Positions 59,268 to 64,000 are shown, counted from the first letter of the stretch. The stretch: DNA of 64,000 nt from a virus (IMGVR_UViG_3300047551_002099:15811-79810), one strand, 5' to 3'. The notes: generated by a model not told the origin, from the sequence alone. Numbers and translations: made by a program.

Positions 59268-60830
59268 TTAGAAGGTTGCTAGTTGCTCTTGCTGATCTTG
59301 CTGTTGCCGCTCTTTCATCAACTGTTTTAGTTCAGCCATGGTGAAATACCCCAGTCCGCATACCGAGTTGATTTCATTAGTCTCTAGACCAGTCTCTTCT
59401 TGAATTAGTTGGCAGTACATCAAGGCCTGCTCTAAGATGAAGTGCTGTCTTTCTCTTGACGACCATTTATCAGATACTCCAGAGTCTACAGTTGGAACCT
59501 CAGCGGCTTCTAGTTTTTTCTGTAGCCGTTCCTGAAGTGAACAGGGCTTTACTTCGGCTTTGAGCTTGTTGAGGTCGATAACCTTTAGGTCACTCAACTT
59601 ACCGCCAGCTAAGAAACGAACCAGTGCTTTCCCTGTTGAGTTATTCACTTTGTACACAAACGCCAGGCTGAAGCTAACGTAGTTTGTGTAGGAAAGCCTA
59701 ATAGAAGAGTCATAGACTGGATACGGTCGGAACTTTAAGGTCATTTCACTTCTTAAAGAGACGGTTACTGGTAACGAAGGAGACTGGCACATCAATAGCC
59801 CAATTACGTCGTTGTCGGCGTAGTAAGAGTCGTATGCTCCGTCGTAAAGAGTAAAGTCTTTTTCCAGGTGGTCTAGAAAGCTTTCGTTGCTGGTGAATCG
59901 GTAGTAGTGTTCGACCTTGGGGTAGCGGTCATCATCACTTGGGTTATACACCACAGACGGGGTTCCTTCTTCATCGTCTTCGTCTTCGTACTCCCGGGTT
60001 TCGGAGTCGTAAGGCGAGTAAGAATCGTTGTATTCATGAGGAACCAAGTCGTAGTTGAAGGCGCTACTGAAGTAAGTTGCGTAGGCACCGCGAGGGTCGT
60101 AAGGACGCCCCTGTTCACCCCAGCAGATGTCTCCGTCACCGTATACGTTACCCAATAAGTAAGGCACCCCAATAGCGTTGACAGTCTTTACTTCTTGGCC
60201 GTTGAGGGTCTTTACTTTGTCTAAAACGTGTCGTAAGGCAAAGACCTTAAAGTACCCACACCCGACTTCTTCAGCGTCGATACGTCTTAAATCCATGTTG
60301 CTCTGCCATAGTAAATTAGGCACTTTTAGATTCACAGCGGCAGAGAAGGTCTCCCCAGCCCGACACGGCTGGCCATCTTTCAGACGTTGCTCTTCTTCTA
60401 CACCGAGCAGGTAGCTATTTGACAGGCCCGGGCAAGCGTTAGGCAACTTACGGTAGTATTCTTTGTAATAGGGGGTTAAGTCCATCCAACCCAACATTGC
60501 CTTGATTTGATCCTCTTTTGAGCGGTTGAGCAGGTAGGTTCTGCGGGAGTAGGAGTGTCCAGTTATGCTGCGAAGGGTTCTGTTAAAGAACACTTCATCA
60601 TTGGTTAGTTTCTTTGTTAAATGGGTTTTGATGGAGTCTGATGCTTTGCTACGAGCGTTCTGGCTGCATTGTCTACAGCGGTTTGCACTGATGTCGCAGA
60701 CGAGTTCGTCGTCTAGCAGAATTTCTTTTTCTTCTGCTTCAGTGATGTTATAAACTGCCAGTGAGCTGTTACTCGATAGCACGTTAACATAGACTGTCTT
60801 AGTGCCTTTCGGGAAGTAGAATACTTTCAT
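59268..60830 (-). CDS. prokaryotic E2-like protein (Prok-E2 family D type), paralogue 1
   Basis: PYLLGNVYGDGDICWG...AYATYFSSAFNYDL. N-terminal CRQC and further Cys residues. Confidence 0.72.
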   Translation of the reverse strand: MKVFYFPKGTKTVYVNVLSSNSSLAVYNITEAEEKEILLDDELVCDISANRCRQCSQNARSKASDSIKTHLTKKLTNDEVFFNRTLRSITGHSYSRRTYLLNRSKEDQIKAMLGWMDLTPYYKEYYRKLPNACPGLSNSYLLGVEEEQRLKDGQPCRAGETFSAAVNLKVPNLLWQSNMDLRRIDAEEVGCGYFKVFALRHVLDKVKTLNGQEVKTVNAIGVPYLLGNVYGDGDICWGEQGRPYDPRGAYATYFSSAFNYDLVPHEYNDSYSPYDSETREYEDEDDEEGTPSVVYNPSDDDRYPKVEHYYRFTSNESFLDHLEKDFTLYDGAYDSYYADNDVIGLLMCQSPSLPVTVSLRSEMTLKFRPYPVYDSSIRLSYTNYVSFSLAFVYKVNNSTGKALVRFLAGGKLSDLKVIDLNKLKAEVKPCSLQERLQKKLEAAEVPTVDSGVSDKWSSRERQHFILEQALMYCQLIQEETGLETNEINSVCGLGYFTMAELKQLMKERQQQDQQEQLATF

Positions 60831-60846
60831 AGTTTAGAAAGGAAGT

Positions 60847-60883
60847 AAAAAAAGAGAAGACCCCGCGTTAGCAGGGCCATCTC
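60847..60883 (-). terminator. intrinsic terminator between the Ubl gene and the enzyme genes
   Basis: Minus strand GAGATGGCCCTGC-TAAC-GCGGGGTCTTCTC-TTTTTTT. Confidence 0.8.
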
Positions 60884-60901
60884 TAGTTGCAATTCTTTTA
60901 C

Positions 60902-61246
60902 TTACGCGCCTTTGGTGTCCGCGCTGGCAGAGGCGGTGACTAGTTCACCCGCTTTAGGGATGTAGTCTTTGGAGACGTAGGTGGTCTGAATTTTGAAGTT
61001 CAGCCGGCTGACGTCACTTACGCCGATGGAACCGCGGTACTCCTGGACGATTTGCTGCAGGGTTTTGGTGCCGTCCACAGTAGCTACGAACTCTTCGGTT
61101 CCGTAGCGAATGACGATTTGGGACTCAGGGTTGAACTGCTCTTCAGTAAACTCACCTTCGTCGAAATCGGGCTCGAAGTCCGCGAAGAGTTCTTCTTCGG
61201 TAGCTTCGGTGGAGTTAACGGGAGCGTTGGTTTCGTAATCAGACAT
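60902..61246 (-). CDS. ubiquitin-like (beta-grasp) protein with acidic N-terminal extension
   Basis: GAGGA RBS. C-terminal ~70 aa IVIRYG...TLQQIV...DYIPKAGELVT ending DTKGA, like prokaryotic Ubls ending in (T)KG. First gene of an E1/E2/JAB operon. Confidence 0.75.
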   Translation of the reverse strand: MSDYETNAPVNSTEATEEELFADFEPDFDEGEFTEEQFNPESQIVIRYGTEEFVATVDGTKTLQQIVQEYRGSIGVSDVSRLNFKIQTTYVSKDYIPKAGELVTASASADTKGA

Positions 61247-61421
61247 GGGAAATCCTCAATGTTGGTAATGGTTATTAAAACTTGACTCTCTCTTCTAATT
61301 AAGAAGTGCCTATAGCAAAGCCGGCTAAGGAGCCACTAATAGACTTAGGTCATAAGGTTTATTTCTTTGTTTCTTCTTGCCTTCCCTCTTCTATTTTCAC
61401 GCCCATCTACTTAAACTCCGG

Positions 61422-61682
61422 TTAAAACTCTAAGACATAACAGGTTACGGGACCCGCGTTAAACAGAATGTGCCATTTAATATTAGACCGCATCTCTTCT
61501 ATGTCCCACAGATAGCTTAAGTCTAACATAAGAGACTTATCTTCGACATACTTTTCACCGTCGTGCCAGTAGCATCTAAGGGTGCTATAAAGAGCCGGGC
61601 CGCCTTCTACTATGTCTAGGACTTCGTTAAATGTTAAGTAAGCGTATTCCTGCTCTTTGGCTAGAGCTGCAGTTGACGTCAT
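61422..61682 (-). CDS. hypothetical protein
   Basis: 86-aa ORF overlapping the upstream stop (ATGA). Confidence 0.55.
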   Translation of the reverse strand: MTSTAALAKEQEYAYLTFNEVLDIVEGGPALYSTLRCYWHDGEKYVEDKSLMLDLSYLWDIEEMRSNIKWHILFNAGPVTCYVLEF

Positions 61683-61927
61683 TGACTGTGAAACTCCTGA
61701 TACTTCATTAACCCATCGACGGCGCCGTTAACACCTATCTTGCCGGTGGGGGTGATGTAGATAGCGATTAGCTTATCTAACCGCTCAATAAACTCGATAG
61801 CTTTTTGAGCTGGCCCTGTGTTAAGTCCAATTAAGTAAAGCAGCTGTGTCTTTGTCTGCTCACTCTTTGCTTTTTTCTTTAACACGTTGAAGGTTTCTAA
61901 GTCAGTCATGATTCTTCTAGGTCTCAA
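61679..61927 (-). CDS. hypothetical protein (true start may be the ATG at 61909)
   Basis: 82-aa ORF coupled to the next gene. Confidence 0.55.
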   Translation of the reverse strand: MRPRRIMTDLETFNVLKKKAKSEQTKTQLLYLIGLNTGPAQKAIEFIERLDKLIAIYITPTGKIGVNGAVDGLMKYQEFHSQ

Positions 61928-62103
61928 GTAAACGGTATATTTCGCTACATTTATAATAGGTATTCCTCAATGGTAGGTGGGCATGAATATTAAGATAGAC
62001 AGCCGCTTGAGAAAGCAGAACAGTCAATCTATCCGCCGCAGAAATCAGACTCGGGTTCGTCTGCGGCTACGTGTACGGCAATGCTTTGGCGTTGCGTAAC
62101 ACA

Positions 62104-62132
62104 ACAACAGCACGAACGGTTCGTGCTGTTGT
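62104..62132. repeat. 29-bp perfect palindrome containing CACGAAC-N-GTTCGTG, copy 3
   Basis: acaacagcacgaac-g-gttcgtgctgttgt. Confidence 0.9.
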
Positions 62133-62136
62133 GGGT

Positions 62137-62295
62137 TTAGGCAGAGACTGCCCTAACTTTTGTGTCTACGCTTAGCCCCAGCTTCTTCCGGTTCGCGCTA
62201 TATGTTTGAAGCGCTTCTTCTTCGTCTTGGGCTTGGACGAACATTAAAGTGGTCGGTGAGTCAACTTGGGCGTCGATGATTTTAAAGAAGGGCAT
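62137..62295 (-). CDS. small hypothetical protein (52 aa, below ORF-track cutoff)
   Basis: MPFFKIIDAQVDSPTTLMFVQAQDEEEALQTYSANRKKLGLSVDTKVRAVSA*. Confidence 0.5.
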   Translation of the reverse strand: MPFFKIIDAQVDSPTTLMFVQAQDEEEALQTYSANRKKLGLSVDTKVRAVSA

Positions 62296-62345
62296 AGTTT
62301 AAACAGCTAAGTGCGTCACCTTAGTACTATGGCACATTTCTTAAG

Positions 62346-62378
62346 AAAAAGTGAAGGGGGTGCATAGTATGCGCCCCC
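62346..62378 (-). terminator. terminator of the tmRNA/tRNA transcript
   Basis: Minus strand GGGGGCGCATA-C-TATGCACCCCC followed by TTCACTTTTT. Confidence 0.65.
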
Positions 62379-62537
62379 GGTGACCTAGTTGGGTAACAAG
62401 GTTAGGTCAGACCCCGTCATTCATACCGCAACAGCGGTACGTTTGAAAGCAACCACTTGGTTGGCATTTGTTGTTTGCTCATCCGAGCAGGCTTCATCGT
62501 AGTGCCATCCTTTACCAATCGAAACCGTTGCATCCCC
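62379..62537 (-). ncRNA. ssrA: tmRNA coding piece (permuted, two-piece type); tag ANQVVAFKRTAVAV*
   Basis: Starts GGGGATGCAACGGTTTCGA, has GAAGCCTGCTCGGATGAGC, and AAACAACAAAT precedes the GCC resume codon. Tag ORF 62465-62421 resembles cyanobacterial ANNIVxFxRxAxAA tags. Downstream pseudoknot TGACCTA/TAGGTCA with GGGT/ACCC. Confidence 0.92.
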
Positions 62538-62538
62538 G

Positions 62539-62573
62539 TGGTACAAGGTACAGGAGTCGAACCTGTCTAAGCG
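62539..62573 (-). pseudogene. 3' half of split tRNA-Ile2(CAU)
   Basis: CGC-TTAG-ACAGG-TTCGACT-CCTGT-ACCTTGT-ACCA. ACCTTGT pairs with the GCAGGGT start at 63304. Confidence 0.8.
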
Positions 62574-62577
62574 GGCG

Positions 62578-62665
62578 TGGGCAAAGCGGGAATCGAACCC
62601 GCGACCTCTGTTAGAGGCTGCCGGCTTATGAGGCCGGTCCTAGAAACCAACGCTAGTCTTTGCCC
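62578..62665 (-). tRNA. atypical tRNA with CAU anticodon and long variable arm
   Basis: GGGCAAA/TTTGCCC-A acceptor, CTAG/CTAG D-stem, CCGGC-CTCATAA-GCCGG anticodon arm, GCCTCT-AAC-AGAGGT variable arm, GCGGG-TTCGATT-CCCGC T-arm. No encoded CCA. Confidence 0.85.
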
Positions 62666-62717
62666 TGGAGACCCGAACCTAGATGTATAATAGAAGTATT
62701 TTAGCTTACTATTTATC

Positions 62718-63272
62718 ATGCAAGAACGAGAAAGGTATTTGAACGGCTATAAACTGGTGCATGCTCCTGACAATTTTTCTATTATGGATAGTGAAAATTG
62801 GTCGGGATGGGTGTATGAGCATAGATACGTAATGGAGCAACATTTAGGTAGAGCTCTGACCTCAGAAGAGGTTGTGCACCACTTGGACGGTAATAAGGAT
62901 AATAACCATATCACTAACTTGATAGTGCTCTCTAAGATAGACCACGGTAAGTTACATCGTTGGATGGATAGTAAGATAATCGTGGATAAACCAGAAACTC
63001 AACCTATTATCGTTGAGTGTGCCCACTGCAAAGCTAAATTTAAAAGACTTAATAAAGACTCTAAATATTGCTCTAATGAGTGTGCTCATTATGCCTCAAG
63101 GAAAGTCGTTAGACCTACTGCGGAGCAGTTAGCCAAATTAATCTGGCAATATCCTATGACTCAGCTTGGAGCTATGCACGGTGTTAGTGATAAGGCTGTT
63201 AAAAAGTGGTGTAAAGCCTACGGTATAACCGAGTTTCCTCCTAAAGGTTACTTTTTACGAAAGCTTGCATGA
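62718..63272 (+). CDS. HNH homing endonuclease (inserted antisense in tRNA-Ile2)
   Basis: VYEHRYVMEQHLGR...VVHHLDGNKDNNHITNL, followed by CxxC...CxxxC and an HTH-like tail. TATAAT at 62686. Stop codon lies on the tRNA anticodon loop. Confidence 0.92.
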   Translation: MQERERYLNGYKLVHAPDNFSIMDSENWSGWVYEHRYVMEQHLGRALTSEEVVHHLDGNKDNNHITNLIVLSKIDHGKLHRWMDSKIIVDKPETQPIIVECAHCKAKFKRLNKDSKYCSNECAHYASRKVVRPTAEQLAKLIWQYPMTQLGAMHGVSDKAVKKWCKAYGITEFPPKGYFLRKLA

Positions 63273-63304
63273 GTTCGCTGCCTTAACCGCTCGGCCAACC
63301 CTGC
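63269..63304 (-). pseudogene. 5' half of split tRNA-Ile2(CAU)
   Basis: GCAGGGTTGGCCGAGCGGTTAAGGCAGCGAACTCAT ends exactly at the CAT anticodon and closely resembles the cyanobacterial tRNA-Ile(CAU) 5' half. Confidence 0.85.
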
Positions 63305-63308
63305 AAGG

Positions 63309-63379
63309 CACCTCCTGAAGGAATCGAACCCTCGTATTCGGTTTTGGAGACCGACGTTCTGCCACTGAACTAAGGAGAT
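63309..63379 (-). tRNA. trnW: tRNA-Trp(CCA)
   Basis: ATCTCCT/AGGAGGT-G acceptor, GTTC/GAAC D-stem, TCGGT-CTCCAAA-ACCGA, GAGGG-TTCGATT-CCTTC. Confidence 0.95.
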
Positions 63380-63380
63380 T

Positions 63381-63410
63381 TGGTGGAGATGGGGAGAGTC
63401 GAACACTCCA
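63381..63410 (-). ncRNA. ssrA: tmRNA acceptor piece, 3' segment (T-loop, acceptor 3' strand, CCA)
   Basis: GTTCGACT-CTCCC-CATCTCC-ACCA. CATCTCC pairs with GGGGATG at 62537-62531, giving the AlaRS G3:U70 pair and A73. Confidence 0.88.
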
Positions 63411-63416
63411 TAGAGT

Positions 63417-63445
63417 TTGACTCTTATACAAGTATAAGCTATCAT
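63417..63445 (+). promoter_or_regulatory. sigma70-type promoter for the second HNH gene
   Basis: TTGACT-N17-TATCAT, 6 nt upstream of ATG 63452 (near-leaderless mRNA). Confidence 0.65.
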
Positions 63446-63451
63446 ATACTT

Positions 63452-63934
63452 ATGAAAAAAGCAAAAGCTGACAAAACCCCAAGAACTTGCTTCACCTGTA
63501 AAGCTGATTTTGTCCCTTCTAGCAACCACAAAAATTGTCCTGTATGCCGTTCTTTAGCAAGAAAGCATTTTTGTGACTGCGGCAAGGAGATATGGGAAAA
63601 GTCTACTAGGTGTTTACGATGCCATAATCTCAATAAAACAGGTAAGTCATTGGGTGTTACTTACCACAAGAGAGGTTATGTCATGCGGAGGGTTCATAAG
63701 GAATATGTTTTTGAACATATTCTTGTTATGGAGCGCCATCTCGGTCGTAAGCTACTAGAAGGTGAAAATGTGCACCACATTAATGGTGTTAAAGACGACA
63801 ACCGTATCGAGAATCTTGAGCTGTGGACTCGACCCCAACCGGCTGGAGTTCGCGCCAAAGATATTCTTAAATGGGCTAGACAAGTTATTGAAACCTATGA
63901 GCCTATAGAACATCTGCTTTCAAGTTCTGAGTAG
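63452..63934 (+). CDS. HNH homing endonuclease with Zn-finger N-terminus (inserted antisense in tmRNA)
   Basis: CxxC repeats, then YVFEHILVMERHLGR...NVHHINGVKDDNRIENL. ATG at 63452 is preferred over the ORF-track start. Confidence 0.92.
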   Translation: MKKAKADKTPRTCFTCKADFVPSSNHKNCPVCRSLARKHFCDCGKEIWEKSTRCLRCHNLNKTGKSLGVTYHKRGYVMRRVHKEYVFEHILVMERHLGRKLLEGENVHHINGVKDDNRIENLELWTRPQPAGVRAKDILKWARQVIETYEPIEHLLSSSE

Positions 63935-63939
63935 CGTTG

Positions 63940-63971
63940 CCGTCTTGGCAACCAGCCGCTACGACTATCCC
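63940..63971 (-). ncRNA. ssrA: tmRNA acceptor piece, 5' segment (helix-2 3' strand plus GAC); true 5' end uncertain
   Basis: TCGTAG pairs with CTACGA and TTGCCAA pairs with TTGGTAA of the coding piece, followed by the conserved GAC and the first GG of the T-stem. Confidence 0.75.
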
Positions 63972-64000
63972 AGTTTAAAGACGTATGGAAGGTCTATTGT

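Follow-up and report, generated by a model that had tools for sequence, protein, structure and literature searches.

The permuted tmRNA gene and its two interruptions

The window analysed here is the last 64 kb (64,000 nucleotides) of a 79.8-kb IMG/VR virus record, with position 64000 at the contig end; the record is estimated to be ~64% complete, leaving 36% of the phage genome outside the contig. A permuted (two-piece) tmRNA gene occupies the last 1.7 kb of this freshwater phage contig on the minus strand, in the order acceptor piece, tRNA-Trp, split tRNA(CAU) and coding piece. A helix-2 strand, the T-arm, the acceptor 3' strand and CCA precede the coding piece, which is the order that defines a permuted gene, and because of this permutation the tag, G1-G7 and the pseudoknot are found 0.85-1.6 kb downstream of the acceptor piece. 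Permuted two-piece tmRNAs have been described in alpha- and beta-proteobacteria and in cyanobacteria (RF04321). As in these, the acceptor piece leads and the coding piece follows, with the acceptor stem and helix 2 joining the two; the phage gene differs from the usual permuted form in that tRNA genes lie in the intervening segment and the acceptor piece is additionally cut.

The upstream part of the acceptor piece (63940..64000, minus strand) comprises the helix-2 strands GUCGUAG and UUGCCAA, the GAC linker and T-stem nucleotides 49-50 (GG). It is the same at 61/61 nt in L002, a 216.5-kb viral contig (96% complete) carrying an uninterrupted allele, and the pairing partners were taken from the RF04321 alignment of L002. 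The downstream part (63381..63406, minus strand) consists of T-stem nucleotides 51-53 (GTG), TTCGACT, CTCCC, CATCTCC and ACCA, and from the T-loop to CCA it is identical (23/23 nt) in L002 and 17 other phage contigs. Both halves are present as the initial annotation had read them, the first (...TTGCCAA-GAC-GG) ending at 63940 and the second resuming with GGAGTG-TTCGACT-CTCCC-CATCTCC-ACCA and ending at 63381. At the contig end itself (63971-64000), the assembly graph of the source sample forks into two continuations, the depths of which (6.6 and 18.5) add up to that of the main path (25.3), which points to two variants in the sequence preceding the acceptor piece.

The coding piece (62344..62537, minus strand) begins with G1-G7 (GGGGAUG) and contains the GGUUUCGA D-loop analogue and the helix-2 strands, followed by the pseudoknot region and by a terminal hairpin and U run (terminator). 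The tag ANQVVAFKRTAVAV* (62421-62465, minus strand) was called by ARAGORN on L002 and on the window minus both inserts, and its frame ends in the hydrophobic tail expected of a tmRNA tag. The 164 nt from G1 are the same as in L002, and GGGGAUG pairs with CAUCUCC in a 7-bp acceptor stem that includes G3:U70. The earlier description of the remaining tmRNA elements (G3:U70, helix 2, tag and pseudoknot) as intact is thus borne out at 62344-62537.

On the native window, ARAGORN gave no tmRNA and no intact T-arm was found, while RF04321 scored 41.4 bits against a gathering score of 47, with a match that borrows the T-arm of the neighbouring tRNA. ARAGORN calls a permuted tmRNA once 63407-63939 and 62575-63268 are both removed in silico. 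Genes of this kind are therefore missed by tmRNA finders, as both programs fail on the native window.

The tRNA-Trp(CCA) gene in the intervening segment (63307..63379, minus strand) was found by ARAGORN and by the Rfam tRNA model (63.3 bits), and this arrangement is shared with L002. A search of an annotated phage collection for closer relatives of the locus matched the tRNA-Trp only. Whole tRNA genes thus stand inside the intervening segment of a permuted phage tmRNA gene both in L002 (3102-3252) and in the window (63307-63379); one case of tRNA genes in this position, called unique, has been recorded (PMC11915505, 2025 tmRNA database).

The second interruption (62539..63304, minus strand) is a tRNA(CAU) split after the anticodon by a cassette at 62575-63268. 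This cassette carries HNH gene no. 2 (62718-63272, plus strand; HNH_3 41.6 bits) and a complete, 89-nt tRNA(CAU) with a long variable arm (62577-62665), an apparent replacement. L002 lacks the second cassette and has an intact tRNA-Met(CAT); it is also absent from X4, a DNA contig from an unrelated metagenome, which skips from 62574 to 63269 with 'AATT' between. All of the nucleotides at which the split tRNA halves differ from L002 lie within ~30 nt of the junction, as co-conversion from a donor would produce, and these differences do not date that insertion.

An HNH homing cassette in the T-stem

The element that splits the acceptor piece is an HNH homing cassette of 533 nt (63407..63939) between T-stem nucleotides 50 and 51. 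Its HNH endonuclease gene (63452..63934, plus strand) is antisense to the tmRNA, in agreement with the initial annotation, and its product of 160 aa has two CxxC zinc-ribbon motifs at the N-terminus and an HNH_3 domain (Pfam PF13392, 46.1 bits against a cut-off of 24.8; PHROG 20891, HNH endonuclease). The promoter TTGACT-N17-TATCAT, previously noted on this strand, was located at 63417..63445 as a promoter-like site matching 10/12 consensus positions. Its second hexamer ends 6 nt ahead of the ATG and no Shine-Dalgarno sequence is visible ahead of this codon, so that the HNH mRNA is probably leaderless. A weak outward promoter-like site, TTTTCA-N16-TATACT (63431..63458, minus strand; 9/12), could provide a new start for transcription of the T-loop/CCA part and of the RNA genes beyond it; over the whole region, promoter-like sites were in no excess relative to shuffled sequence. 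The cassette is a minimal autonomous gene, consisting of a promoter and a compact, probably leaderless ORF.

Comparison with uninterrupted alleles of related phages, which had been proposed as a check, yielded two empty sites. In L002, with flanks ~90% identical, the tmRNA gene has neither insertion; the permuted tmRNA that ARAGORN calls there shares the tag of the window and has tRNA-Trp and an intact tRNA-Met(CAT) between its pieces, RF04321 scores 86.8 bits (gathering score 47), and the T-arm reads GAC-GGGAG-TTCGACT-CTCCC. No HNH homologue was found in the 96%-complete L002 genome. The X4 contig likewise represents the empty allele, running from 63404 to 63940 with 'TC' between. From these two alleles the insert therefore replaces 'GA': 535 nt stand in its place, that is, 533 nt inserted together with an A52 to T change, and no target sequence was duplicated or lost. 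The HNH gene is thus polymorphic for presence and absence at a fixed site, L002 and X4 lacking it at exactly this point.

A chimera in which an assembler joined an HNH gene into a tmRNA gene is extremely improbable, even though 60 nt separate the insert from the contig end, where the assembly graph branches. Logan unitigs from two runs (X1 and X2) of one sample, the probable source, continue unbroken over 62443-64000 at the depth of the flanking genome, and the contigs had been built by a different assembler; no empty-allele joint was seen in these runs. In addition, the left junction is crossed by an RNA-library contig of another study (63706-63983). Because both junctions stand in two runs and the left one also in this further contig, an assembly artefact is unlikely, and the same architecture in a second phage lineage from three other metagenomes (L022-24, see below) also argues against it.

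The tmRNA forms known are the standard, the permuted and the group I intron-containing ones, and in a census of 97,179 tmRNA sequences every interruption reported was a group I intron in the T-loop, with no endonucleases other than LAGLIDADG ones (PMC11915505). The phage gene resembles group I-interrupted tmRNA genes (Williams 2002; PMC11915505) in having a mobile element in the T-arm region that is sporadic among relatives, and group I tmRNA introns may carry a homing endonuclease gene, as the insert does here. It differs from them in its site, T-stem 50/51 without a group I core as opposed to four T-loop subsites, in carrying an antisense HNH gene where group I tmRNA introns carry sense LAGLIDADG genes, and in ends that break the group I rules.

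An intron was considered and rejected. A search with Rfam release 15 found no intron family at E<=1 in 60000-64000 (this collection being without a dedicated tmRNA_intron model) and none at E<=10 on either strand of 63300-64000. Neither a group I nor a group II intron accords with this lack of any family at permissive thresholds, nor with the absence of a core signal and of room for a core: the ORF nearly fills the insert, as had been pointed out initially, leaving only ~50 nt non-coding, with 5 nt between the left junction and the HNH stop codon. For a group I intron, moreover, the site lies outside the four known T-loop subsites (PMC11915505), position -1 is G where U (rarely C) is needed, and the terminal G is missing, the last base of the insert being A for the product that restores GGGTG. 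The first bases of the insert can form the hairpin with the upstream exon that had been described, as can its last bases (ACTC-TATG-GAGT), but the energy of the junction hairpin is ordinary (z -0.9) and a role of the hairpins as processing signals is not backed. We therefore regard the element, with high confidence, as an HNH homing cassette of a tmRNA-specific clade sitting in the T-stem, and not as an intron.

A clade of HNH genes at tmRNA gene ends

The closest homologues of the window HNH protein are 44-62% identical to it, and ~1,170 proteins match at E<=1e-20 in the protein collection. No closer relative representing an older copy was found, the best matches being 52% (viral and metagenome contigs) and 62% (protein collection). 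The homologue loci, those of the closest viral homologues included, nearly always adjoin a tmRNA gene end, and the window HNH gene also abuts the T-arm/acceptor end of a tmRNA. All residues invariant in the clade are present in the window HNH (alignment A2), among them the invariant VHH..G.KDDNRIENLELW block, and the catalytic His/Asn motif is thereby retained.

Three arrangements were distinguished. In class A (antisense, with a replacement end), the HNH gene is convergent to a complete tmRNA, usually one without an encoded CCA; metagenomes supply at least 44 such loci, and of the 80 loci taken from representative bacterial genomes at least 50 are of this kind. The commonest gap from the discriminator base to the HNH stop codon is 7 nt, with the spacer AGAGYGC. 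Class A is found mostly in Actinomycetota, with some cases in Saccharibacteria and other Patescibacteria; chromosomal examples among loci L104-L263 are L111:1480-2363, L186:1192-2062 and L219:1150-2043. Relics of the displaced T-loop/acceptor end lie beyond the HNH start in several loci, for example L129, L143, L106, L130, L202, L212 and L232. In class S (sense; L020, L021, L025, L145, L116 and L120), the HNH gene comes after the tmRNA end and has the orientation of the tmRNA, and in L020 a relic stands directly after the HNH stop codon. Most members of the clade thus supply a new T-arm/acceptor end, with the displaced one surviving as a relic in some. The cassettes at tmRNA ends have the look of an element driven by its endonuclease and equipped with a tmRNA 3' end of its own.

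Class B, a plain insertion without a replacement end, comprises only the window and the phage lineage L022-24 from three metagenomes. The HNH protein of L022-24 is 48% identical to that of the window, and the phage lineage is unrelated; the gene sits exactly at 50/51 and is antisense. L022 reads GGAC-TG, antisense HNH gene, GAG-TTCGACT-CTCCA-CATTTCC-A, and clean removal gives a perfect T-arm at the same 50/51 site. It too is without a replacement end between T-stem nucleotide 50 and the HNH stop codon, and the ~31 nt between the HNH start and the exon leave no obvious room for a promoter. A search for an uninterrupted relative of the L022 gene found none. The HNH tree does not discriminate between a shared and a separate origin of the two plain-insertion HNH genes, because both are placed on long branches with weak support. 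L128 had been taken up as a further disrupted case; on re-reading of its ORF end, it is more likely a class A locus.

The gene interrupted in this second lineage (L022:1400-2320, minus strand; also L023 and L024) is a short tmRNA-like gene with the acceptor strand GGGAATG, GGTTTCGACGG and a T-arm. It has no clear tag frame, and a near-duplicate of its 5' part lies upstream and ends in a terminator. This gene may be a tag-less phage tmRNA like that reported for phage DS6A.

Fate of the split tmRNA

Our preferred reading, to which we assign a probability of about 0.55, is that a recent selfish insertion disables the tmRNA, an RNA that serves in ribosome rescue. The enzyme of this clade would presumably cut the T-arm/acceptor DNA of empty alleles, and copying from a donor would then have put the cassette into the acceptor piece in antisense orientation at T-stem position 50/51, with the neighbouring A52 probably co-converted to T. 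The acceptor piece would thereby have been split into a helix-2 part and a T-loop/acceptor/CCA part. Because the cassette came without a substitute end, unlike those of most relatives, the acceptor piece is physically cut, and because a normal T-arm cannot form from the parts, the tmRNA is most likely non-functional. The event would be too recent for further decay to have accumulated, and the phage would tolerate the loss since the tmRNA is presumably an accessory gene.

The lack of a replacement end in the window copy points towards a broken gene: there are only 5 nt between T-stem nucleotide 50 (63940) and the HNH stop, and none of these constitutes such an end. In a multi-strand fold, the intact two-piece RNA forms the acceptor stem, T-arm and helix 2 (-40.5 kcal/mol). 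With three pieces, the acceptor stem and helix 2 are kept while the T-arm is absent, and the leader derived from the insert pairs with the T-loop.

The intact state of the other elements had been held to argue against long decay; conservation in fact does no more than limit how old the insertion can be. Relative to L002, the tmRNA pieces have 0/248 nt changed, compared with ~10% in the flanks, 1/73 in tRNA-Trp and 5/71 in the split tRNA, and this identity fits a recent insertion as well as it fits retained function. With a neutral expectation of ~12 changes, which is a crude figure, a disabling event would have to date from roughly the most recent quarter of the period since divergence from L002. 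Two further observations speak against disabling. The interrupted allele is the sole form in the source sample and recurs in a second study, and the precise recurrence at 50/51 in the window and in L022-24 resembles the pattern of tolerated, intron-like elements.

That the split is tolerated, with a tmRNA working from three pieces or with its acceptor parts rejoined by a non-ribozyme route, is a minority reading that we consider unlikely; if it were true, the recurrence at 50/51 would represent a new kind of 'RNA gene in pieces' made by a homing endonuclease. In the first of these forms, also unlikely, the T-stem would be completed across the nick: the upstream part would be held on the coding piece by helix 2, and the T-loop/acceptor/CCA part, released from the outward promoter or by precursor cleavage, would bind through the 7-bp acceptor stem. 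Both intermolecular helices do survive in the three-strand fold, the pieces are perfectly conserved relative to L002, and a promoter-like site faces out of the insert; the same 50/51 split in L022-24, and a joined arm (GGGTG/CTCCC) equal to a natural, working-type allele, are further points in its favour. The three-piece idea was already raised by the initial annotation, but it found no support in the fold, where no T-arm forms, just 2 bp span the nick and the leader sequesters the T-loop. Moreover, the outward promoter is weak and within background, L022 has no obvious promoter in its ~31 nt between HNH start and exon, and most relatives evolved a whole replacement end, suggesting that a split arm is inadequate.

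Removal of the insert from the RNA by a mechanism other than the known ribozymes appears quite improbable. It might proceed by cleavage of a sense-antisense duplex with the HNH mRNA followed by ligation, for which the two promoter-like sites would supply the convergent transcription, or by a new self-splicing fold within the antisense coding sequence; either would accord with the fact that two unrelated tmRNA genes have a clean insertion at an identical point of the stem. No excision restores a perfect T-stem, as was originally observed, and the best one joins the exons as GGGTG/CTCCC, with one U-U mismatch. The RNA-library contig over the left junction is unspliced, and a search of the RNA run, made on assembled contigs that are blind to rare spliced forms, turned up no spliced joint. 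These RNA data are assembled Logan contigs, which cannot show small structured RNAs or RNA ends, and the gaps in RNA cover over 63348-63683 carry no weight. Removal from the RNA is also disfavoured by the absence of any intron family at E<=10, by a non-coding part of only ~50 nt, and by end nucleotides that differ between the two lineages, the L022 insert ending in C, and break both group I and group II rules.

Function could also be supplied by a second acceptor piece or a whole tmRNA gene outside the contig, the split copy being a tolerated relic. Only ~64% of the genome is estimated to be in the contig, whose end is 60 nt away from the insert, and class A relatives keep a working copy beside the relic. 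We nonetheless judge this improbable, since no second acceptor end was found in the 79.8-kb contig, L002, at 96% completeness, likewise has a single acceptor end and no second, and the downstream part of the split copy is the one that faces the coding piece.

The finding is best described as a homing endonuclease invasion, and possibly as a gene in pieces. Free-standing homing endonuclease genes are known from phage tRNA clusters, as exemplified by SegB of T4 and the HNH nickases of T5. The cassette resembles these in being a small autonomous gene, of the HNH or GIY-YIG type in such clusters, that lies among phage RNA genes and varies between relatives, and the tRNA-cluster endonucleases spread by cutting the empty allele, as is probably the case here. 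They differ in that they sit between RNA genes, whereas the present one is inside a structural RNA and splits a stem.

Genes split by endonuclease insertion include nrdA of Aeromonas phage Aeh1, into which mobE is inserted, and T4 gene 39/60. In these, as here, an endonuclease gene without an intron splits the host gene at the DNA level; their halves, however, are proteins that reassemble and work, whereas here they are RNAs whose T-arm is predicted by folding not to re-form. If the split gene works, it would be the first three-piece tmRNA and the RNA counterpart of the split nrdA of Aeh1.

HNH genes in tRNA clusters have also been noted in the literature (PMC6582537), and genomic islands integrate at the 3' end of tmRNA genes with a replacement end (PMC11915505). 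HNH classes A and S are similar to these islands in bringing a substitute T-arm/acceptor end, in some cases leaving a relic; the islands, in contrast, use integrases and attachment sites and span many kilobases, while the window holds a single ~0.5-kb HNH gene and no replacement end. The literature searched for HNH genes at tmRNA genes describes HNH genes within tRNA clusters and T-loop group I introns, but neither an HNH family associated with tmRNA gene ends nor an insertion that splits a stem. An intron-less antisense HNH gene in the T-stem of a two-piece gene adds a fourth way in which a tmRNA gene may be interrupted. The large HNH clade on the tmRNA 3' end, spread over phages, Actinomycetota and Patescibacteria, has no description in the searched literature and would be a small, endonuclease-driven parallel to the integrase islands at tmRNA genes.

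Replacement T-loops in classes A and S are often non-canonical, namely CGCACAT, GGCGGTA, GGGCGGA, TCTCGGAT and GGCAGTA as compared with TTCGAAT (L104:1990-2080, L138, L112, L021:1415-1455, L202, L212, L228 and L232), and these may protect the cassette's own copy from cutting. The GGGTG/CTCCC arm obtained by excision is the natural arm of three uninterrupted permuted phage tmRNA genes with the U-U mismatch in the T-stem (L012:7187-7678, L018 and L019), where this endonuclease family may have left it behind, as a scar or as an allele that resists cleavage. Directly ahead of the HNH start, 7 of 110 loci (for example, L111:1440-1480, L108, L191 and L203) carry an inverted repeat, TCGAA-N6-TTCGA, compared with 0.12% of background windows. 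The homing endonuclease I-TevI has an operator that resembles its target site, and by analogy the inverted repeat may be such an operator. In the window (63397-63424), the tmRNA T-loop itself pairs with GTTTGACT, a stretch that shares bases with the first hexamer of the promoter (TTGACT).
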